A stretch of DNA of 56,820 nt, counting the filler, from Sluysia triapertura (Eukaryota): the NCBI GenBank assembly GCA_046118255.1. It is 3 parts of 3 records of this genome, joined end to end, with 100 filler letters (N's around TTAATTAATTAA, not from the genome) between each part and the next. Parts side by side here need not be neighbours in the genome. Positions count along the whole stretch, not along the records: positions 1 to 24,386 come from JBJNIA010194046.1; 2 more parts are not named here. One strand, given 5' to 3'. Positions 6,939-56,330 of the stretch are shown one piece after another. The notes below the pieces were generated by a model. That model saw only the letters and a program-made list of their open reading frames with translations, was not told the origin of the DNA and ran no database searches. A program made the translations under genes and the position numbers. Position 1 is the stretch's first letter. Each line of letters begins with the position of its first letter.

Positions 6939-7493
6939 TGTAATGTAAAAGTAATAGAATAAAATAATTATCAAGGTGAGTTCACCAACGTACTGGGCTT
7001 ACCAATTAGGGCCAGCCATTGGATTTTATAAATCAAAGTAAAGTCTATGCTTTAAAGCTTAAACCTACCTGGAGGTAAATTTGTGTGCTCTGTAGTGGCT
7101 AACACTCATAATTCAAAATTATTCAAAATTTCTTGATCAATATTTATAAATTAAATTCCACTAAAATTCAAATTTTAAAATAATCACACGTTTTTACTTT
7201 CGAATTACATCAATACCCTATAAAATGGTATCGTACGTTAAAGACGAATACCAAATTTACGAATTCATTTTTAAAATTTAGCTTAAAATACTATTCAAAA
7301 TTAACTTCTATAACCACATACTCTATAAAGAGAATTACAGTTTTGTTTGGCCGTGTTGCAGGAATTAAAGACTTCTGCTTAAGGCACTTTTTAATAAAAT
7401 ACTTAACAAAATTAAACACTAAGGTAAAAAATATATTCATTAAAATTCATAATATTAATATGTTCGTTTATAAGAACTTTCTTTTTCATTACA
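6939..7493 (-). mobile_element. Solo LTR, family A (~555 bp)
   Basis: Termini TGTAATGTAAAAG...CTTTTTCATTACA form a 12/13 inverted match with TG..CA ends. It contains the family A GC-rich hairpin shared with the gag-linked LTR at 52280. No TSD is recognisable. Confidence 0.6.
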
Positions 7494-10616: not shown

Positions 10617-12008
10617 TTATTTATTTGGGGTGGTATAAATGATTGGGATCATGTACTGATTTAGTGGTGTGGTCAGTTGGTCGAGCTTTGAAATACATCT
10701 ATTGACAACTTTTAGGTTTGTAGTTCTATTAAAAGTCGTGAGCTTGTTCAGAGTAAAATCCATTTTTAATGTTGCAGGGATTAAGTTACTTATTACAAGA
10801 AAGTTACAGTAAATGTTGCTGTTTAATAGTTTAAAATACATCATTTGACTGTTAACATTAAATTTTCTTATGTCAATTTTAGATTTTGCTATTAGCGTTT
10901 TACTTATCTTGTTGTAAATAAATAAGATCTTGCAACACAATGAACAGAAAGTTTTATTAATTATATAATAATATTTATCAATAAATTTCAAATCGCGATA
11001 CAGTTTCAACTTGATCACCAGGTTATTCTTTACTGCACCGAGCGCTGCTCCGTGATACCAGACCTCGCATCTGTATTCTAAAAAATATAGTGTGATAAAA
11101 TTAGGAATTAAATATAAAAGATCAAAATTTACTAAAACTGTTTCAGCAGAAGATCTGTCAGTAGAATTCGAAAGTAGCCAAAGTGTAGTAAGACATTCCT
11201 TGTCCATACTGGTAACACTACCGAATGAATTTAGTAAGTCCAATAAAGTTCCGTCCATAGTCATGCCTGATACAAGTAAATATCGATCGATCACTAAAAG
11301 ACATGACACAATATCCTGACGATCATTCAACTTTAATCCGCTACGAAACTTTAGTCTTGGTAATTCTTGACTACCTGCTTTTTCTATCATTCTGTTACTC
11401 ATAGTAATGATGTTCAAGAACGCTGAAGTACATGTATGTTCCAATTTTGGACATTCATCAACTTGTGGATTTTCTGTCGATTGTCGTGAACTACTTTCAA
11501 TATACTCAAATAGTTCAATGGCAACGATCTTTTCCTGGGACTCGTTAGTCAGTCTTGCATATTGACTCCGCAATCTGATGATCAAACCCTTTAATTTAGT
11601 CGCTTGAAAAAAGTAAGGATAAGTAATTTGAATAAACAAAATTGATTCTTGGGATAACGGTTTGTATGAGTTACTACCGATAGACATATGTAGTTTAGCA
11701 ATTATATCGTGCACGATTATTCGAATAATGAAATTAAAATCGATAAATTTTACTTGATAGCGTTCGCAAATTAATTTACAAAGTTTTTGCATAAGAAATT
11801 GATCGGTGGATGATTTATATTGTCTCATATTACGCAGTAATTGCGACATTTTATGGTGTGTAGAACCAGAGAATTCCGAGTGAGAGAGTACTAGAGCAAC
11901 TCGAGGTGCATGTTGTTGACTTGATAAAACTAATTTCGATGACACTAACTGAAGTTTTTGAAAACAAATATTAAAATTGAATTGATTACGGAATAGATGA
12001 GTCTGCAT
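10617..12008 (-). CDS. 463-aa orphan protein, probably the surviving part of a longer frameshifted ORF starting near 12200
   Basis: 1.39-kb stop-free frame in very AT-rich DNA with locally higher GC. No recognisable domain. The upstream 12065-12248 region is homologous to 31392-31590. Confidence 0.7.
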   Translation of the reverse strand: MQTHLFRNQFNFNICFQKLQLVSSKLVLSSQQHAPRVALVLSHSEFSGSTHHKMSQLLRNMRQYKSSTDQFLMQKLCKLICERYQVKFIDFNFIIRIIVHDIIAKLHMSIGSNSYKPLSQESILFIQITYPYFFQATKLKGLIIRLRSQYARLTNESQEKIVAIELFEYIESSSRQSTENPQVDECPKLEHTCTSAFLNIITMSNRMIEKAGSQELPRLKFRSGLKLNDRQDIVSCLLVIDRYLLVSGMTMDGTLLDLLNSFGSVTSMDKECLTTLWLLSNSTDRSSAETVLVNFDLLYLIPNFITLYFLEYRCEVWYHGAALGAVKNNLVIKLKLYRDLKFIDKYYYIINKTFCSLCCKILFIYNKISKTLIAKSKIDIRKFNVNSQMMYFKLLNSNIYCNFLVISNLIPATLKMDFTLNKLTTFNRTTNLKVVNRCISKLDQLTTPLNQYMIPIIYTTPNK

Positions 12009-12064
12009 CGTAAAATCATATAATATGAATGTTGTTTCTTGTGCAATATGTTGAATTAAATTTA

Positions 12065-12248
12065 AGGTGTTTTAAATTAATTTTTTTAAGTAAATGTTTG
12101 ATGACTTTCGATATCGAATATGACTTTGATGCTATGAAATTTTATGTTTAGAGTGTTTGAAAGTATTAAGAATTGTGAAATGTTGTGAAGAGTGATTTTG
12201 TTGTATGTTATTAAAATAAAATTTTAAAATGTTGGTTTGGTCATCACA
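12065..12248 (-). repeat. Dispersed repeat family D copy (TGTG(G/A)TG terminus plus KIT(F/L)HNIS-coding segment)
   Basis: Clear nucleotide homology to 31392-31590 and 20150-20252. Confidence 0.75.
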
Positions 12249-14189
12249 AAAGTTACTACTGATTAATATACTCGATGTTTAAAAATTGATCCATAGTTTT
12301 TAAATCACTTTAAAACTGTGAAAATTAGGTTTGACGAAATGAATACGAATTTATTTCTTTAATAACAAATGAATAATAAACTATTCGAATATATTTCATT
12401 AATGTCATCACAAATAAAAATGCACTGGATAAATAATACAAAACGATACAAATATGAAACTATGTTTTATTCAATGTTATGATAAAACACATTATATAAA
12501 AGTTATTAACAATAATTAATGTGGTTATAAATAATTAACTAAATGTTTCAAGGAATTATATTTCAACAATGTGGTTTATTAAATTACCGATTAATTTATG
12601 GTTTTAGTAATTATGCTTAATATTCAATCGAAGAAAAGTAATAGAATTCTTGAATGTATTTAACAAATTATATAACTATTGAATGAATTGACCAAATTAT
12701 CAATTTGATTTGATAATTTGTCTTTTCAGATACTTTTTAAAATTTATTTTAATCTCAATCGCTATAAAAGATTGAAAACACTTTAAAAAATTTTGAGCAT
12801 AGTTTAATATACAATTTTAAAATGTAAATCAACTTATTAATATGTCGAACTAACAAGATCAATCCGCGAGTGAATTGTTGTTTTTTGAAGTTATTAGTAA
12901 CAATAAATCAATATCAATAATTTCAATACTCATTAGATCAAGTATAAATCTGAAATTCTATTTTTAATAATATTTATGGGAGACAGACCTAAAGTGCCAT
13001 TTGGTATAATAGACTTATAAAAAATGGAATGCACGTTTTAATATTATAAATAATTATTAACAAACACCGAATACTATATTCAAACTATGCTAATTGTGAA
13101 GGACTTTAGATATAAAAATATGGTTTTAATTGTAAATTACGTTAATAGACTTTAGAAGTATATAACAAAACGGTATGTATTATAATGCGTAATGTAGAGA
13201 AATCAACTTCAATATAAAAATTATTAATTCGCTTATAATTCCTTTTACAATTCGAGTCTACTTTATAAAACTATAAATTTTGAATGCTCGTTTTTAGTAG
13301 AAATAGAAATTTATCGAATATTAGATTTTAATGGTTATATAATACGTCGAATACAATAATGAAAAATTAATAATATCAATCGCATCAATTAATATTTAGT
13401 TACTTCAGATTTTTGAGAATTGATTTTATATAGTGCAAAAAATCACGAAAATGATTTAATCAGAAAATTAAGTAGACTTTGTGTTCAATTGAAATTTATT
13501 CTTAAAAATATAAATTTATCAAATGTGCAATTTTAACAGTGATATAATATGTCAAATATAATAATTGATAATATTAATCTCCTCAATTAATATTTAATAC
13601 TTCGAAAACTTTTCCAACAATTTTCCCAAATAAATTATAATTTTCACAAATAAAATATTTATCTTCTTGAAATAATTCAAAATTACTATTGTTAATCTTC
13701 TCTCTATTTTTTTTGTGTGATCAATATAAAATTCTGCTATATATATAAACGATTTTGAATAATTTTTTTATATTTTATAATAATAATTTTAACTATTTAT
13801 ATATTTATTTTATTTATAATAATTATTTTATTCCTTTTAATATATAATATTATTTTATAATATTTATTTAATGATAATTTAAATAATTTTATATATTAAG
13901 GATAATTTCAATTTTATAATTTTAAATTCTAAACTTTACATTATAAAAATTAATTATAATATTGTTAAGATATATTTTTACTGTTTTATTTATTTTTATT
14001 GTATTATTTATGTTATTTACATTTTATTTTAATATTATTAATTTTATGATAACAAACATCAAAAAACGTATTATAATTAAAACTCGAATTAAATAAAATT
14101 ATTAAAAATTAATAAAATATTTAGTAATAATAATTAAAATAAAATAGTAATTAAATATTTAGAAATAATAACATTTAGAATAAAGAATT

Positions 14190-19999: not shown

Positions 20000-20252
20000 T
20001 AAATTCTTGATATTATTTTGGAAATAAAATTATAAAATTGTAAAAATTGGAGAAGTTGAAAAAGATTCCATTTTACTTAAGACTTTGAAGTTGTTTTGAA
20101 AGACAATTTTAATGATTTTTGATGTTGTTAAAGATTTTACATGTTATCAAATTTTAATGAATCTGAATGCGTAGGCCATGAAATATTATGAAATGTGATT
20201 TTTCGAGTGTAATATTGAATAAAAATTTTGAATAAAAAGGTTGGCCACCACA
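20000..20252 (-). repeat. Family D copy
   Basis: The minus strand starts TGTGGTGGCCAACC (20252-20239) and encodes KITFHNIS at 20202-20179. The lower boundary is approximate. Confidence 0.7.
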
Positions 20253-22074
20253 CTTTATTGCTGTAGGGAACTCATCGCATAATATTCATCATAATTCATC
20301 ACATATAGTTCATCACAATTCATCGCTTAAAAACGCTCCACATATACACAAACTATTAAACGAACTACTAAACTCATTTAAAAGTAAACACGACCATCCC
20401 ATCTAACTATCATGAACTATTGTTATTATTATTACGATTCATATCACATTAAAACTTGTGTTAAAAATTATAATCTTTATTGTTATGTAATATAATTGCC
20501 AAATAATAACTTCTGTAATAACCTTTGTAATAATTTTCACGATAAAATTTCATAATAAATTTCAACAATTCCGTATTAATAAACATAATCACCACATAAT
20601 TGTTATCATTATTATTATTATTTTTCCTTTTTTCCATTTAATTGTATTTATACAGTATTGACAGAATTAGTTTTATCTTGTAAGCATCAAAAACAAATTA
20701 GAAGACTTGGAAACCTTTTCCGAACCTTCTCCAATAATATCTTAAAATCCTCGAAATCTTTTTAAATTTGGAAACCTATAAGAATATTTAAATACCTGCC
20801 AGATATGTAACCATTTATCAAAATACCGTCTGAATATGTAAAATAATCGAGTGGCATTACAATACAATTAATTATTAATGTCAATAGAAACATTTCATTC
20901 GTAAGTTACGAAGAGAACAGAGTTGCGAAAATGAAAACTCGTAAAATAATGCCCCGAAGTACTTGGGAAATGTTGAACAATTCGAACGACCGTTTGAAAT
21001 AAATGCGAAGAAGCAACTAAAAATAGAAAACGGAAACTGTACTTAATTAAGAAAAATAATTCGTGAATGATTTATCGAATAGTAAAATCTTTTTCTAATA
21101 ATTTGATTTAATTGGATTAAGACCGTAAACATTCCGCATTTATTAAAAATATTTCTCTTTGTATTGCTTGCTTTGTGTTGACGACTGATTCATAACTATT
21201 AATTGAGAAACTAATTTCGAATGCTGTTATAATTTATTTTCCATGTATTATAATTTTTAATTTTAACAAAATCGATAGTAGCATCAGTTTTTATTCCGTG
21301 ACAGCCAATATATTTTTATCTTGATTATCATAATTATTTTGATTAATGTTTTATTTCCTTTTCAATGTTCTTTAAATAAATATAATGCAACGTTCATTAA
21401 CGGTGGCGTCATTGTTTCTTCGTGGAAAAGCACTCATTTCAGCTACTGTTTAATTTATTCGCAATATATCATTATAATTTGTAGTTGTTACACTATTTAA
21501 TTAATAAATAATATTACTGCGATACTAGTAGTAGTAGCATAAACACATTTTTATTATATTGATTCATGTTTCACCTTATTTGCGATGTGTAACTGTATTT
21601 GTACGTTCAATACAATTAATACGAAATAAGAATGTTGCTTCATTATAGCAGCATCCTTATTTTATATATATACATAGTAATTGTTATTATTTTATTGCTG
21701 TATTAATTTATTTGCGATACAGAATTGTAATTTGTAATTTCTTTGATGATAAAGTGTATTTGTTTTCGTTAATACATTACAGAAAAATTACTTCTTTTAA
21801 TTACGAGCTTTACATTTCTTAATTTATGTGATGAAATACTTTTAGACATTAAAAATTGTCCTTTACATTTAAGTAAGTTTAATTTACTATAAATATTATA
21901 TTAACACAATAAACATATAATTTATTTACAATATTAGAGATTTTATTTTTTATTTCGGTTTTGTTTTTTCTGAACATATTTCTAACTAATAATCTTGATA
22001 CTTCTAAAAAAATTAAAAATAGATATCAGAGGTAATAAGGATGATCACATGAAAATAATTAAAAAGCACTATCA

Positions 22075-22797: not shown

Positions 22798-23200
22798 TGT
22801 GGTGGTCAACTTTCACTATTATTAAATTTTTCTTAAAAAAATAATCCTTTAACACTTTAATTTTCACATATTTATCTTCTCTACACTCACCAAAACAGTT
22901 CATCTGCCAAATCATGTCATATCCACAATCTCATAACATACAAACCACACTTACATCTAATACCATCAATTTACATCAACAGATCCATCAAAAATATGTT
23001 ACTCGACATTCGTAACAATCAAGCTACAACCGCATTCGTAATTAGCTACCTGACACCTTCGAATCAATTTCAACATTTTAAATTCATCATTTGTTATCAT
23101 ATAATCCCTAACAGCACAAAAAACAATACCTCTTAAAATTACCAAGAGAACAAATCATATTATCAACATTGCACAATAACCTTCCGAATAGATAATAAGA
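22798..23200 (+). repeat. Family D copy (diverged)
   Basis: Starts TGTGGTGGTCAACT and is followed by the same C/A-rich strand bias as 31392 onward. Confidence 0.5.
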
Positions 23201-24386
23201 GCTGTATTATAATTTATCTCTTTCACATTCACTTAAACTAATCTTTACTTAAAGATTTTAGCTTCAAACATATTTAAATGTATTGCAATATGTTTAGAAA
23301 TCTAAAGAATTCAAAGTATGATTATGTTCAGTTTTTAAACAATTCAAGAGTTTCTGCCGTTTAATAACAATAATAACTATAACATCGTTTCTCTTATTAT
23401 TATTGTTATTACACTCAATTCAATTATTTTTTAGTTTAAATTCAAAATATGTAAGAAATATAAAGAAAAATAATAGAAAGATCATGTGGAATTTACAAGG
23501 AATTCATGTATTTTTAAATATTTTGTATTTAATTAATGTTAATAATAATAGCAACATTAGTGTTATTATTATTAACATTAAACTTTATAATTTTATGTAA
23601 CATTAAAATTTGTATCTACCATCACCATTACTGACATTGTTAATTACTGCATATAGATTTGTGTCAGTACTGATGGTGGCTAATCATTCAATTATTTTAT
23701 TTTAATTTTAGTATTAGTTGTCCAATCAGTGTTACACTGATTATCAGAATAAAATTGTGTGCATAAGTTTTTAAAAGTAATTTTGATAATTACAAAATTA
23801 CAAATAACCAATTCATTTCAAATACATATTGATTTAGAAAACTACTATTATTTTAATCACTACTCTTATTTTTAATAAAATAATGACTGATAAATTTGGA
23901 CTAAATCAATTTACAAAAAACAGAATAGTACTCGTAAAAATTGTTAAAGAATCAAATTATTTAAAGTCAAGCTATTTGCGTAAAAAATTACAGTATAATT
24001 TTAAATTTAATTCTGAGATCGGATCAATCACATCATTTCGCCGATTAGTAAATGAAACCACAATGTGATTCTATTTGTCAGCAATTTCATATCCTATTGA
24101 AGATTTCTTTAGTATCAACTAAGAATAGTAGCAAATTATTTAGTTTGATAATCAGTAATTCATATGTAAAATTTAAATGTGTAATGGTTGAGCATATAGA
24201 ACCATGTTATTCGAGTTTCTTACGCAATTCAGGATACATAATTCCAGTTTCAGAATGGATTAAAAATGTAAAGGTGTATAAAATTTTTGTTTTTGTATTT
24301 TATGTTTCAGAATTTTTGTATTTATGTAATTTTAAAAAATATTATAAAAATTATTAAAATTTATATATTTTAAAAAATTATTAATT

Positions 24387-24486
24387 NNNNNNNNNNNNNN
24401 NNNNNNNNNNNNNNNNNNNNNNNNNNNNNNTTAATTAATTAANNNNNNNNNNNNNNNNNNNNNNNNNNNNNNNNNNNNNNNNNNNN
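24387..24486. other. Artificial assembly linker / gap
   Basis: 44 N + TTAATTAATTAA (stops in all six frames) + 44 N. Confidence 0.97.
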
Positions 24487-41098: not shown

Positions 41099-41779
41099 TT
41101 AATTGCTATGACAATATTTGTTCTTTAAGTGTTCATAATTAAGTTTAACATTACTTATTAAAATTCGCAAATCAAATCCAACCTTATCTTCATATTTACC
41201 AATCAATTCCCATAATGACAACAAACAATGTTTGGCTTGACCGTAATCCAAAACCACATCGCCCAGGTTAGAATAGTAACACCATTCATTATAAAATCGA
41301 TTATAAACCAAATTTCTCAATAATCTATTAATTTGTTTTGTTAATTCCTTTTTATTATTAAATTTATGTGATAAAATCGATTTAATATTTAGTTCGGTTA
41401 AATTATCAATAGATTTATTTAATAAATTTTCGAATTTCGAATTAAACTCATCGATAATTGGCTCAATTTTCAGTAGAAAATCTTTAATTTCATTTTCTAA
41501 TTGCTCAGTAACAAAATGTGTGCTGAATTCAAACAAATTATTCGATATCGTTGTTTGACCTTTATAAAAGTACTCGAATGATATTATTGGTGATTTATCA
41601 TAGGTGCATTCGGTTTTATCTATATTAAATTTACTGTTTGTACAATCTTTGCAGTAACAATGTTTACAAGCCAATTTAACGTAATTGTTTTCACACAAAT
41701 TATTGGTGCAGATTAAACATTTATTATCACTGTTGTACACAATGTTCTCGTCAGTAGACATTTCAATCCGGCCATACAT
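41099..41779 (-). CDS. RING finger protein (C3HC3D variant), putative E3 ligase, intronless
   Basis: CLIC-x12-CKH-x-YCKDC-x11-CTYD near the N-terminus of an intact 226-aa ORF, followed by a helical region. Confidence 0.8.
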   Translation of the reverse strand: MYGRIEMSTDENIVYNSDNKCLICTNNLCENNYVKLACKHCYCKDCTNSKFNIDKTECTYDKSPIISFEYFYKGQTTISNNLFEFSTHFVTEQLENEIKDFLLKIEPIIDEFNSKFENLLNKSIDNLTELNIKSILSHKFNNKKELTKQINRLLRNLVYNRFYNEWCYYSNLGDVVLDYGQAKHCLLSLWELIGKYEDKVGFDLRILISNVKLNYEHLKNKYCHSN

Positions 41780-42093
41780 TAAATGATGCTTTATAATATT
41801 TTTTATATTACTTAAATAATGCGGAAACGAAAATATGGCTAGATTTTTTTTGTCGAAAATATAATTTATTTTGTAACTATTTAATTAAATAACATTATAT
41901 TTGTTACTGGAGTAGATAGATAAATTAACAAAGCAAATTTATGGATCGTTTTTAACATTTTGGATAATAATATATTAATTTATATTGCGCTCATATCTAA
42001 TGCAAAGTAAGTACTCAAAAGCGCGTAAAATAAATCATTCACTATGATATTTTCGAAAGAGAAATAACTTTGCCTTTTTCTTAAATATTTCAT

Positions 42094-42193
42094 NNNNNNN
42101 NNNNNNNNNNNNNNNNNNNNNNNNNNNNNNNNNNNNNTTAATTAATTAANNNNNNNNNNNNNNNNNNNNNNNNNNNNNNNNNNNNNNNNNNNN
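42094..42193. other. Artificial assembly linker / gap
   Basis: 44 N + TTAATTAATTAA + 44 N. Confidence 0.97.
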
Positions 42194-51304: not shown

Positions 51305-51868
51305 TTAAAATACCAAATTTTTTTGCATAATTGAACGTTCAATGCTCCTTAATATTTTAATTACTTCCTTAAAGGGTTTTCCATCTATTAAATTGACATA
51401 AGTTATTAATTCAGGTTGCAATCCAGTTTTTAATTTATCTTTTAATGTTAATTCTCTATTAACTTCTGGAATTTTAGCTCTAGCAACAATGCTTTTGAGA
51501 GCGCAAGCATATTTATATACGGATTCATTAGGTCTCTGTATTCTAATATTGAGCTTTTTTGCATAATATTTACCCATATCATCAAGGGCTATTTCTTCTG
51601 TAAATGCATTAACAAATTCATTCCAAGTTTGCTTATTATTATCACTTATTTCTTTATATGTCTGGATAGCTACTCCAGTAAAGTAATTTTGGATCCGTTT
51701 TATTTTATAGCAGCCGTTAGCTTCTGCTATACTTTCATATTCAAATAAGAAATCACAGAGATCTTCCTCTGCTCCGTCAAATTTTTTCATTTCAGGTAAA
51801 GGCATTATTGGACGCCTTTCTCTGGCTAATTGCGCCATATAATCTTTAAATTCATTAGATAAAGCCAT
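51305..51868 (-). CDS. gag: Ty3/Gypsy retrotransposon Gag (capsid-like), 3' truncated, no pol
   Basis: KFDGAEEDLCDFLFEYESIAEANG...YFTGVAIQTY...TWNEFVNAF...IQRPNESVYKYACALK...GLQPEL is the retrotransposon Gag pattern. A PBS lies upstream. Confidence 0.85.
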   Translation of the reverse strand: MALSNEFKDYMAQLARERRPIMPLPEMKKFDGAEEDLCDFLFEYESIAEANGCYKIKRIQNYFTGVAIQTYKEISDNNKQTWNEFVNAFTEEIALDDMGKYYAKKLNIRIQRPNESVYKYACALKSIVARAKIPEVNRELTLKDKLKTGLQPELITYVNLIDGKPFKEVIKILRSIERSIMQKNLVF

Positions 51869-52251
51869 ATAATTCCTTAATTTTGATCTGTAATCTTCCG
51901 AAAGTACTAATTGCTTGTTATTAAATTGCTTTTATTAAATCTATCAATAATCAACTTAGGGAGTAATTATTTTGCTTAACTTTATCTAATTCTTAATGAA
52001 ATCTTAATACAATTATTCCAAAAATGCTTGATTCTTAATATTGATTCTTTAATTCAATAATAATCCTTATATTCTTCTTGAATACTTAATTATTATATCA
52101 AAAATCTTCTAAATATGTTAATTCTTCTTAAATTCTTCTTCATTCCTCTAAAAATCATATTAAATGCTTCAAAGTCTTGTCAAATTCTTAAAAATTTTAT
52201 ACGCTTTATATTATTGTGTCAAATTTCTTATCTATATTATTTTGATACTGG

Positions 52252-52889: not shown

Positions 52890-53870
52890 AACAAAATCTA
52901 CATCACCCAATACACTAGATTAAAAGTCTCGGATTGCTTCTGTGATACATTCTGTAGCCAGTTCTCTTATCTGCTTATAAGAAAAACGCAGCTACCTGAG
53001 AAGACTGGTATTTTCAGGATGCCAGGACCCAAGGCTAGCTACTCTGAGTTCCTGTAGTGTAACCTGGGTTTTGTTTTTCTCCCCTAGAGATTTCACCAAG
53101 TCCTGATACTTCTCCTGGTTTAACACTCGTGATTTTTCAAAGTACTCTTCCATATCGTAGGGTACTTTGATGTCCACGAGCGTCAGTTTACCAGAGGAAG
53201 GGCACCAGATTTGTAGATCTGGTCGTCGGAGATCGTCTGGTGATACTGGATTGTCGGCCTTAACAAGGTAGCCATTTAGTTCCAGGAAATCCTTCACCTT
53301 CCTCAGTATGCAGTTATGTCTATTTGTTCTGCGCAGTTCATTACGTGGACAGAGACTCGACAGGGAATGTGCACCAGCGGCATGTAGTTGGCAATTGTCT
53401 TCTGATATTTTTCGGCTATAGTTCAACTGTAGTATGTTGTTTCTGGCCTTGAGGAGGAATTTCCAACTGTGGTTGCCAATCGGTAAATTGTACAACCTGT
53501 TGGAATACAGTGATAACGATGTCATGTGAACTGTCCTTCCTTGTGTTTTCAGGTTCTTCCATTGTTCTGTTTGAGCAATATTGAGGAGCTCATGCAGGTG
53601 TTTCCCAGCTTTTGATTTGTTCTTGTAGTTGAATACACGTGGCGTTGGTCCCATGTATGGCGCCTCCATTTGTAGTGTTACCAAGGGATCCTCGAATATG
53701 AATCGTATTTTGATGTGGTACTTGCGGTTTAGGTTTTCCACACCTTTTCGTATTTTGTAGTTTCGCTGGATGATGCACTGAGAACCAATAAGCCAGTTCA
53801 GAGCATCCTGTAGACTTGCCACTGTTGGGATTCGATCTTTCGCTACTCGAATTAGTTCCATTCTGGCCAT
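52890..53870 (-). pseudogene. Linker plus restriction-like endonuclease domain of the non-LTR element
   Basis: Degenerate CCHC, RHNCIL, LRRPDLQI, LVDIKVPYD, EKYQDL, VASLGSW. Read-through past the TAG at 52992 gives LATECITEAIRD. Confidence 0.9.
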
Positions 53871-53924
53871 AGATTTCGTGTCGGGATTTGCTGCTGTTAG
53901 AAGGCGAAATGCACATATGATGCT

Positions 53925-55604
53925 CTAGCAGATATAATCATCATATGCGGATACCAAGCCAAGTCCACCATGCTTTTTATGAGCGTACAGGAAGTGGTTG
54001 TTGAGAGGGTACTTTTCCAAGTCAAGTACCTTTTTCAGAAGTTTCTGAATTTTTTCATTGTATCCTACTTCTTGTGTTAATGATGACGATTGTTGCGCAT
54101 GGGAACTGCTGAGGATTTGCGTATTGATGTTCAGGTTCCTGAAGTGGAAGGGCAATCTTGATTGAATGTATACATTGTATAGTTTATATTTGTATTTGGC
54201 GTCCAAGTTGCACTTTACCACTTTCTCTAGGTCGGCCAGGTTTTTGTTGATTATCCTACTGATATCTTGTCTCCTCTGGGTTTCACCAAATGGAACACCA
54301 AGATATAGTATTTGATCTTTTTGCTCCCGGAGGACATTATTGATTGGTATGTCCTGTATATTGATTCCGTATTGCTGATGATGTTGTTGTTTACAGTTAT
54401 GATAATAGTAGCATTTCATTGGTCGAAAGAGTAGGTTTGCAATCTTGGCATCATTAGTAATTTTCTCAATTTTCTTGATTTGTTATTCCAATTAAGGCGA
54501 TGTCATCAGCGTATGCTAAGTACTGTGGGATAAATGTTGCCTTCTATACATAAATGTTGCTCTAGGTCCTGGAACAAGTAATCAATTGCTACACAGAACA
54601 GGGTCATTGATAGTGGGCATCCCTGTTTTACTCCATATTTTATTGTCACAGGTTGTGTCAGCAATTCATTACACATGTATCTGGTGGAACTGTTGTCATA
54701 AAGCTTTTTGATGATATCTTTTGATGCCCATTTTTTCTAGTGTGTACCATAGCAGTTGATGAGGAACGGAACCGAATGCATTGGCTGATTACAAAGTTAT
54801 TCTCAATGCATCCATCTGATCTATTGATTGCTCTTTGATGTGGATGGAGAAGTTTTCCAACTTTGATCCAATACAAGAGTCGTCCGTTTAGAAGTTTGGC
54901 GATATTCTATAACACATACCAACTACATCAATTGGTCGCCAGTTAGAAGAATCCTCAGCGTGTTGGATTTTACCCGGTTTGATAATGAGTAATGTATTAA
55001 ATTGTTTCCATGACAGTGGTATTTGTTGGTATTCTAAGATTTTGTTGAAAAGTGTTGCCATAAATTCTCCTTTTGGGTCCATTCTCCGGATATCATTAAG
55101 GGTGATTTTGTTTTGTCCCGGTGCAGTATTTTGGCATTGGTTCATGATGTGACATACTTCCTGTAGTATGACCATTTCTCCTGTGTATGTGTCTGGGAAG
55201 TATGGAAGATTGGGCATTAAGTGTGACTTGAATTCCTTATTATAATGTTTCAGGATTTGATCTTCAGTGGGTCGATTGACAGGAATTCCATCGTTCGTTA
55301 TTAATTGGAACGCTCTAGTCATGTCAGATTGAGAGATTTTGTTCAGGTTGACATCTTCTAGAGACTTGTTGCATTTACCAGAACGAGCGTTATTGTATTT
55401 CTTTAGGATATTATATGTGTCCTGATCCTTGACTTGGTATATTAAGTCACAGAACATATTAAATTCTTCGTTTGGTTGAATCTGATTTTCATACAATTGT
55501 TCAATGATGCAGTAAACTGTCGGATGTGGTTGCTTGGGTCGATGTATCATACTATTGGCGAGTTTCCCATTAATTAATTTGTACAGTGTGGTTCTAGTAT
55601 TCAT
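53925..55604 (-). pseudogene. Reverse transcriptase domain of the non-LTR element (fragmented)
   Basis: TAPGQNKI, NWRPI, DGCIEN, NAFGSVPH, GVKQGCPLS, LAYADDIALI (YADD at 54513-54502), YLGVPFG, HGGLGL. Confidence 0.92.
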
Positions 55605-55659
55605 AATATCAGGTTCCTGGAAGATATATTGTTGTAGAGGTTCTAACGATGACGAATTT

Positions 55660-56330
55660 TGTTGCTATCGATACTGCAGGGCTATGTTGCAAATGAAGGG
55701 TCCACGATCAGTTGGTCCTTGTTGCATGGGGTACGTTATTGATCGGCTTTAGTGGTTCTTCTTCCGGGAATATGGGAATCGCCATAAATCTTTGGATTAT
55801 ATTTGCGAGGGAATTTGGCAGTACTTCCGTTTGTTGGTGTATTGGGTCAATAAACATGTATTTTTTATTGACATTGTGTACAATCAACATCATCCAGTGA
55901 TTGTTGATGTTAATTATCCAATACAGATGTTGGAAATTTGCTAACTTGTGCAGCGGGAAATTGTTCAGTAGTGCTTGCGAGTCGCCTGTCATTGCATAAT
56001 TGAATATTTCCGCATCTAGCACTATATTGTTAATATCGGCAATGTAGGCTTGGAAGTACGCCAGTAGCGCTTTCATAGTTAGTCAATCCAATGGATTGAC
56101 TGAATCCAAGTCCCCGTTATCAAGGGTGATTTCTTCAGTCTGTTGAGATACCTTGGGTGTGATATGTCTTGTCAAGTGACCATTGAGTATACTGGGTTTA
56201 TTGTATACAAGCCCACAGAGGCATTTAGCCAGGAACGGTTTAGCAAACTCGTGCACTCTTCAGATGTCTCCGGATGACGTCACTACCTTTAACAGAGTAT
56301 TTAAAGGTTTTGCAGCATTGATTGTATTCG
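55660..56330 (-). pseudogene. Zn fingers plus Ulp1/C48 cysteine protease domain of the non-LTR element
   Basis: NQCCKTF...IRRHLK; CLCGLVYNKPSILNGHLTRH; PLD*LTMKALLAYF (WL motif); ININNHWMML (His); FIDP (Asp); shifted frame MQQGPTDRGPF (Q..DCG with Cys replaced by Arg, codon 55706-55704). Confidence 0.8.

Follow-up and report, generated by a model that had tools for sequence, protein, structure and literature searches.

The 12-kb locus of Sluysia triapertura belongs to a real, unclassified element that captures host genes, of which it is a rearranged member. Its open reading frame (ORF), described in a first-pass annotation as an orphan protein, is not one: residues ~1-285 come from the host gene CCDC142 and the rest is a tail belonging to the element. 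On balance we favour, with moderate confidence, a likely non-autonomous element present in many copies, of which the locus is a rearranged one. Its ORF joins a CCDC142 exon to the element tail; host exons are likely taken up by splicing onto a reusable acceptor, and movement likely involves copying of RNA. The window, i.e. the whole stretch of 56,820 nucleotides analysed, is made of three stretches with a GC content of 24-30% (joints at 24387-24486 and 42094-42193); the element studied sits in the first (JBJNIA010194046.1). Genome searches covered the 619-Mb assembly, fragmented into 263,945 contigs.

The TGTG-type terminus proposed at 12248(-), 20252(-), 22798(+) and 31392(+) is borne out, with unrelated flanks; the motif is additionally found at 7091(+) and 9717(-), whose flanks are unrelated too. 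Genome-wide, exact TGTRGTGGCCAACC has 6,927 matches (3,294 + 3,633), against 1 for the reversed control, and constitutes the start of dispersed units of ~3 kb. The composition of 90 distinct left flanks equals the background, and the base preceding the left end is T in 33, A in 25, C in 17 and G in 15 of them. Units with both ends (n = 12) measure 1.9-3.4 kb. Units of the family have in common a sharp left end, a C/A-rich arm of 1-1.5 kb and a chimeric ORF; the right end, CCCCAAA, is sharp in subfamilies B and E. Full-length relatives of the window ORF (family B) begin with TGTAGTGGCCAACC, followed by ~1-1.4 kb of C/A-rich arm and a longer ORF, and end with a C-run and AAA ~3.0-3.4 kb from the start. 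This shared opening supports the earlier proposal that the unit is mobile, of no recognised class and bounded by a TG terminus. A twin inverted palindrome, which we take to be CCAAT-like, lies just 5' of the cargo in a host-like CCDC142 copy (L207:152-230) and in many arms; the pattern used did not find it in the window.

Features of the 12-kb copy and of related units in the window (positions along the whole window)
Feature	Position	Strand	Basis or remark
Degenerate copy of TGTRGTGGCCAACC, left terminus	12235..12248	-	family-A homology begins at 12248
First 220 bp of C/A-rich non-coding arm, subfamily A; contains KITLHNIS look-alike	12030..12248	-	82-89% identity
Chimeric junction between arm A and ORF B, with 3-nt TTC microhomology	12027..12029	-	
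463-aa chimeric ORF	10617..12008	-	stop codon 10617-10619 beyond element end
N-terminal region captured from host CCDC142 (its first large exon); ~44 codons deleted relative to host-like copy	11166..12019	-	
Site of ~65-codon deletion; exon/tail splice junction lost in window subfamily	11143..11166	-	alignment A1
Element tail (~170 aa), common to units with other cargo	10624..11143	-	alignment A3
Sharp right end (CCCCAAA)	10624..10630	-	
Short arm with terminus, cargo ORF not seen; additional to the first-pass list	7091..7216	+	
Short arm with terminus, cargo ORF not seen	20105..20252	-	
Arm with terminus, cargo ORF not seen	22798..23709	+	
Sister unit of family C with the same terminus; arm extends to ~32200, followed by a broken ORF containing a KDM1B/LSD2 CW-SWIRM piece (~32320-33080) and own tail	31392..34087	+	

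The window copy is a chimera: its 220-bp arm comes from one subfamily and its ORF from another, and the two meet at 12029. Other copies of arm A (40 scored of 1,736 candidates for the identity given in the table) run on differently, into ORFs with an UNK-type CCCH finger. The close copies of the ORF (88-92%) match it from 12029 to 10617-10624: their homology stops exactly at 12029, and among themselves they have an upstream arm different from that of the window copy. The terminal block had been read as leading into the 463-aa ORF; the ORF is real, but arm and ORF are not one ancestral unit, since homology breaks between them. Similarly, KIT(F/L)HNIS is readable at 12248, 20252 and 31392 but is not coding. 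At 12248 the block lies in a frame different from that of the ORF, and the ORF frame has two stops between arm and ORF. We rejected the 220-bp arm as a solo LTR, as family-A copies extend past 220 bp. Stop to stop, the ORF spans 10617-12071(-) and 484 aa, of which 463 follow the ATG at 12008; it crosses the right end of the element, and its stop codon is supplied by flanking DNA. A contig of the close sequencing run X1 crosses this right end and shows no difference; runs X2 and X3, with their small shares, do not enter the evidence. Just beyond the left end of the copy lies a further high-copy repeat (12850-13500). A tRNA-like stretch, possibly a tRNA-derived element, recurs in the flanks of other loci (L055:2155-2245, L011, L048, L049).

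No decayed copies of the ORF protein were found at 22.1-22.8, 23.9-24.3 and 33.0-34.1 kb, where they had been suggested by eye. With tblastn of the protein against the window, the best other match has an E-value of 0.022; profiles A1, A2 and A3, run over all six window frames, recover the ORF itself only, the next rows being at E 0.009 (another frame within the ORF) and E 0.042. The other termini of the window carry other cargo or arms only.

The origin of the protein emerges from profiles. Searches with its single sequence gave no Pfam family, no significant hit among 5,389 candidates and no usable match in the Atlas, and the PDB search with alignment A1 stayed at E 0.076 at best. A 9-row profile, in turn, retrieves 26 proteins at E<=0.001 among 1.84 billion. 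The Pfam CCDC142 domain lies in the C-terminal half of four of them, and those looked up by name (10 of 26) belong to Macrostomum, trematodes and cestodes; as the closest homologues are flatworm proteins, the genome is probably that of a flatworm. The genome's best match to two of the 26 homologues, L030, scores E 3e-69 against a profile of CCDC142 homologues; L030 and the window ORF share 35% of their residues along positions 13-306 of the latter, counted stop to stop (E 7e-52); the CCDC142 region of the window is 67-68% identical in DNA to L207. On its own, the window ORF did not reach E 0.01 on the CCDC142-homologue profile, so that its assignment goes via L030 and A1. A Pfam CCDC142 search of the genome contigs gave no hit, as did its control sets, and is uninformative. 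Compared with host CCDC142 (Pfam family PF14923), the N-terminal half is homologous and the exon end identical, but the element ORF lacks the C-terminal Pfam domain, has lost internal stretches, continues into a foreign tail and has more than 100 matches. Apparent orphan ORFs can be diverged host fragments that are seen by profile alone.

The exon end is where the cargo meets the element tail. The ORF of L030 ends in CAG|GTATGT, followed by AT-rich sequence found in no other copy; the contig of this intron-bearing copy stops 1.6 kb into the intron. All 42 informative copies (44 distinct rows minus L030 itself and one ending at a contig end) depart from L030 at its GT donor and continue into one shared tail, three of them offset by nearby indels. 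Several predicted CCDC142 homologues of other animals terminate at the identical position, which suggests a conserved intron. The window copy itself is without this exon/tail junction, deleted in its subfamily.

The same tail start serves other host sequences. A tail-start pattern occurs at 35 places; most of the 30 read follow the CCDC142 exon, while three follow a GPCR, two a WAVE and one a ZSWIM piece. A wider pattern gave 55 places, and the 14 more that were read all come after CCDC142. Among the fetched loci, 69 loose matches to the tail start comprise 51 at the CCDC142 exon end, 7 at ZSWIM, WAVE or GPCR pieces, 1 at CCDC142 with an indel, 3 unassigned and 7 due to chance. Three more upstream sequences joined at the tail start occur in L301, L154 and L165. 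The ZSWIM parent (L263/L308; contig C190849) has an intact 118-codon ORF related to ZSWIM8 (E 4e-10), a G|GTAAGT donor and no arm upstream, and two copies, L251 and L265, enter the tail exactly at its donor base. In both genes with a visible parent, CCDC142 and ZSWIM, the joint is hence donor-exact, and the two agree in tail nucleotide and phase. The class A GPCR piece (3 loci; E 9e-5) and the WAVE piece (2 loci; E 0.005) precede the same tail start; their parent genes were not found in the genome, which leaves their donors putative.

As the exons of two host genes abut one tail start precisely at their ends, exon pick-up by splicing is likely. The foremost alternative is template switching at a fixed site: G|GT is common to donor and tail, so that a switch at this microhomology might look like splicing, and an acceptor was not found. 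Reverse transcriptase alone, changing template at one preferred place along the element RNA, would then connect the tail to host RNA, or to a free first exon, with no acceptor involved. We consider this rather unlikely. It has a precedent in BLASTOPIA, whose LTR-mediated retrocopies switch back at one site near an exon junction, according to the accessible part of PMC5131818; that mechanism needs flanking LTRs, which the present units do not have. It would also suit the plain microhomology of other joints, as at 12029, and other ZSWIM captures that stop short of the donor. No unspliced intron-type acceptor precedes the tail start among the places read, and the intron-bearing contig ends early. 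Against a switch alone stands the donor-exact joint in two genes out of two, at one tail base and in one phase.

The intron-bearing copy L030/L207 is frameshifted near its 5' end and lies behind the twin palindrome of an arm, so it is not clearly a working host gene; it may be an unspliced capture instead of a working CCDC142 gene. This association of arm palindrome, exon and intron in a single copy is what one would expect if a DNA element, Pack-TIR or Helitron/Helentron-like, took up intron-bearing fragments, with one later retro-event dropping the intron and DNA transposition amplifying the product. We find such a route improbable: independent intron-exact joints in different genes need repeated RNA steps, and the ends of the units also argue against it. 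Inverted-end scores of 14-20 in 10 full units are no better than those of body windows, which leaves no TIR. The TC and CTRR ends of Helitrons are absent, the element ending in TGT and CCCCAAA, and the 90 left flanks show no T-rich or A|T target. The marks of Helentrons and HINEs (subTIRs of 12-15 bp, a 3' palindrome and T at both flanks) were not found either, a T-run being present at one end only. The absence of a target-site duplication (TSD) does agree with DNA capture, as does L059, where an inverted arm, 77% alike, abuts the right end (one copy). Inner arm pieces at 20269-20625 and 34081-34304 of the window are inverted against a terminus or ORF end, arranged as in L059.

The TSD test for lengths of 4-6 bp covered 12 units, of which 3 had right ends called ~20-35 nt early, and the copies are 10-30% diverged. 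It gave one perfect 5-mer and 20 matching positions of 60, against 18.3 after shuffling (p 0.33), with no p below 0.09 at any offset or length. No TSD of 8-11 bp is visible by eye in the printed flanks, and a variable TSD as in L1 target-primed reverse transcription does not appear in the same 12 units. There is no long poly(A); A-runs of 3-4 occur in 28 of 32 right ends. Penelope-like elements and Terminons are marked by a hammerhead ribozyme in a pseudo-LTR and by partial copies in tandem or inverted; here, no ribozyme family was detected at E<=1 in 6 loci, nor any tandem excess. DIRS and Ngaro elements carry inverted terminal repeats with an internal complementary region, or split direct repeats, and absence of a TSD would fit them; more generally, the lack of both a TSD and terminal repeats would suit a tyrosine-recombinase or an endonuclease-independent route.

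The full units show no direct self-match at their ends, only a weak and inconsistent echo of ~23 nt of the left end near the right end; situated ~35 nt from it, the echo is in the top three windows for only 4 of 10 units. No gag or pol, whose linkage to full-length copies the first-pass annotation had proposed to check, was found in the 94 ORFs (93 of at least 110 aa and one added) that lie no more than 4.5 kb from a terminus in this assembly of 263,945 contigs. A solo-LTR nature of the units, or an origin as remains of a giant Burro- or Ogre-like gypsy element, is hardly conceivable: they have no TSD, no internal sequence is common beyond either end, bases are conserved past ACA and the 94 downstream ORFs contain no gag/pol family. 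Their TGT start, the ACTACA or ACCACA just before the C-run at some right ends and, as described in part of PMC6431247, the planarian giant LTR elements with captured domains would speak for it. The terminus is not the start of an ordinary LTR beside the ORF either: the gypsy LTR and primer site of the window are unrelated to it. They accompany a gypsy-like gag at 27800-29300(-), with an LTR end near 29250 followed by a primer-site-like TGG stretch. Two other elements in the window are a Ty3/gypsy-like gag copy at 51305-51931(-) (Retrotrans_gag, E 3e-5) and, by eye, a broken non-LTR retrotransposon at 52992-55664(-). The latter has three ORFs with no Pfam match below E 0.1, and its motifs presumably represent an RT-like start and a restriction-like endonuclease.

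Scoring 92 of 550 candidates in the genome yielded 113 matches to the ORF; most copies are broken. The ORF is a coding frame under weak constraint. Across 19 copies, 7,972 aligned codons of its frame include 33 stops, whereas each of the other five frames has 463-803; alignments of the copies and these frame-by-frame counts led us to reject the ORF as an antisense shadow of another gene. Between subfamilies dN/dS is 0.64, a value that one control frame matches (0.74-0.88 in the others), so selection on amino acids is weak; indel lengths are a multiple of three in 51 of 119 cases. The AlphaFold model of the protein (pLDDT 27.9) is useless. In the youngest subfamily (TGTAGTGGCCAACCCC; L140, L141, L143 and L136) intact ORFs of 447-546 aa persist; their mosaics differ from one ORF to the next, and some contain modules that are repeated internally. 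Such open frames would be expected of an immobile, lineage-specific gene family, duplicated with its promoter and gaining ordinary retrocopies in a jingwei-like manner. We hold this to be very improbable in view of the base-sharp ends, the unrelated flanks, the thousands of termini and the predominance of broken copies. Nor is there any excess of head-to-tail or circle junctions, with 13 matches where a rough composition estimate gives ~9.

Other units carry pieces of many host genes, mostly 5' parts. Relatives of the family C unit of the window match zf-CW (E 0.002) and KDM1B (E 2e-5); the C-terminus of its ORF at 33-34 kb gives an hhalign probability of 0.4% against the tail profile, and its best single segment E 0.008 among 13. 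Sister units contain a LysRS piece (E 7.5e-10), and RNMT (E 5e-26), a DEAD helicase (E 7e-16), which we take to be eIF4A-like, RUN and UNK finger pieces also occur as cargo. Factors acting on RNA and chromatin abound in the cargo, namely LysRS, KDM1B, ZSWIM, the cap methyltransferase and the eIF4A-like helicase. Of the 94 ORFs downstream of termini, 11 match Pfam at E<=0.001, and none belongs to a reverse transcriptase, integrase, transposase, recombinase or Rep family; an autonomous partner or mobilising enzyme was not found. An intact 261-aa ORF at 41099-41884(-), with a weak RING finger (E 0.002), adjoins a repeat at 41964-42093 and may be the cargo of another unit.

The captures are layered. 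In a larger family (40 scored of 213 candidates) the ORF starts with PIP4K2, represented by its N-terminal half (E 7e-37), and closes with the ~170 aa that also end the window ORF; PIP4K2 came from the PDB search, though alignment A2 gave nothing in a word search. Copies with GPCR, WAVE and ZSWIM cargo have additional tail sequence in common with the PIP4K2 family, a remnant of an older capture. This remnant and the common ~170 aa make family B a later layer on an older capture. No homologue of the tail was found outside the genome (PDB best E 1.3; none among 7,989 longer candidates).

Altogether, we propose that splicing and RNA copying act in sequence. The arm with its twin palindrome would be the promoter, and an intron-bearing source copy would provide the acceptor, to which a host first exon could be spliced in cis or in trans. 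A reverse transcriptase supplied in trans might then copy the RNA, switching template at short microhomologies and thereby adding or swapping arms, as at 12029, before integration without a fixed TSD. We predict that the chimeric protein is a passenger, not a mobilising enzyme, and that its frame stays open because translatable RNA is weakly selected for. Beyond this, we tentatively raise the possibility of an undescribed class of high-copy animal retroelements, devoid of LTRs, TIRs, TSDs and poly(A), that act as a standing exon trap, in which one reusable acceptor takes up host first exons repeatedly and new ORFs are layered. If so, thousands of promoter-bearing copies would make the genome a chimeric-gene factory. 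Exon capture by splicing appears here in an invertebrate, from several genes at one nucleotide and with the frame kept, in an element whose exact termini number ~7,000 and which matches none of the classes tested; it offers a testable route to lineage-specific "orphan" ORFs.

The literature searches found no description of the family, which may have an entry in a repeat library (Repbase, Dfam). One literature match to the motif was rejected, being, to judge from the part available, an unrelated cancer paper. Among known systems, planarian Burro elements, giant LTR elements with captured domains, differ by having LTRs and gag-pol, as far as the accessible part of PMC6431247 describes them. Pack-TIR and Pack-MULE elements (PMC8277862, in part; Pack-MULEs of myxozoans are the topic of bioRxiv 10.64898/2026.02.11.705288, going by its visible part) resemble the present units in being multi-copy, with captured host fragments and young chimeric ORFs; unlike them, the units have neither TIRs nor TSD, and their intron-exact joints point to RNA. 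With Helitrons and Helentron/HINE/DINE-1 elements, as covered by part of PMC4067079, they share the lack of a TSD, asymmetric ends, internal microsatellites and gene capture, but not the TC/CTRR ends, a subTIR pair or a T-rich or A|T left-end target.

Partial, 5'-biased, intron-less cargo, microhomology joints, multi-gene chimeras, non-autonomous re-amplification and one recurrent joint near an exon junction all have counterparts in LTR-mediated retrocopies, as described in the accessible part of PMC5131818; by contrast, no LTR pair, primer-binding site or gag-pol remnant was found around the present cargo. A mark of SVA-like passengers, fusion of the element to a host exon at the splice donor of that exon, is seen here for CCDC142 and ZSWIM. 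In SVA_F1 and pt_SVA_D6, the first exon of MAST2 or STK40 is spliced to an SVA acceptor; splice-mediated exon capture of this kind gave two primate SVA subfamilies of fewer than 100 copies each, according to the portion of PMC6139936 at hand. There too, a first exon ending exactly at its donor on a non-autonomous 3' part founds a subfamily, and in one instance described in the same portion the acceptor cannot be reconstructed either. Unlike SVA, the present element has no VNTR, long poly(A) or TSD; it keeps or regains an arm 5' of the exon, yields an in-frame ORF product and has captured many genes in successive layers.
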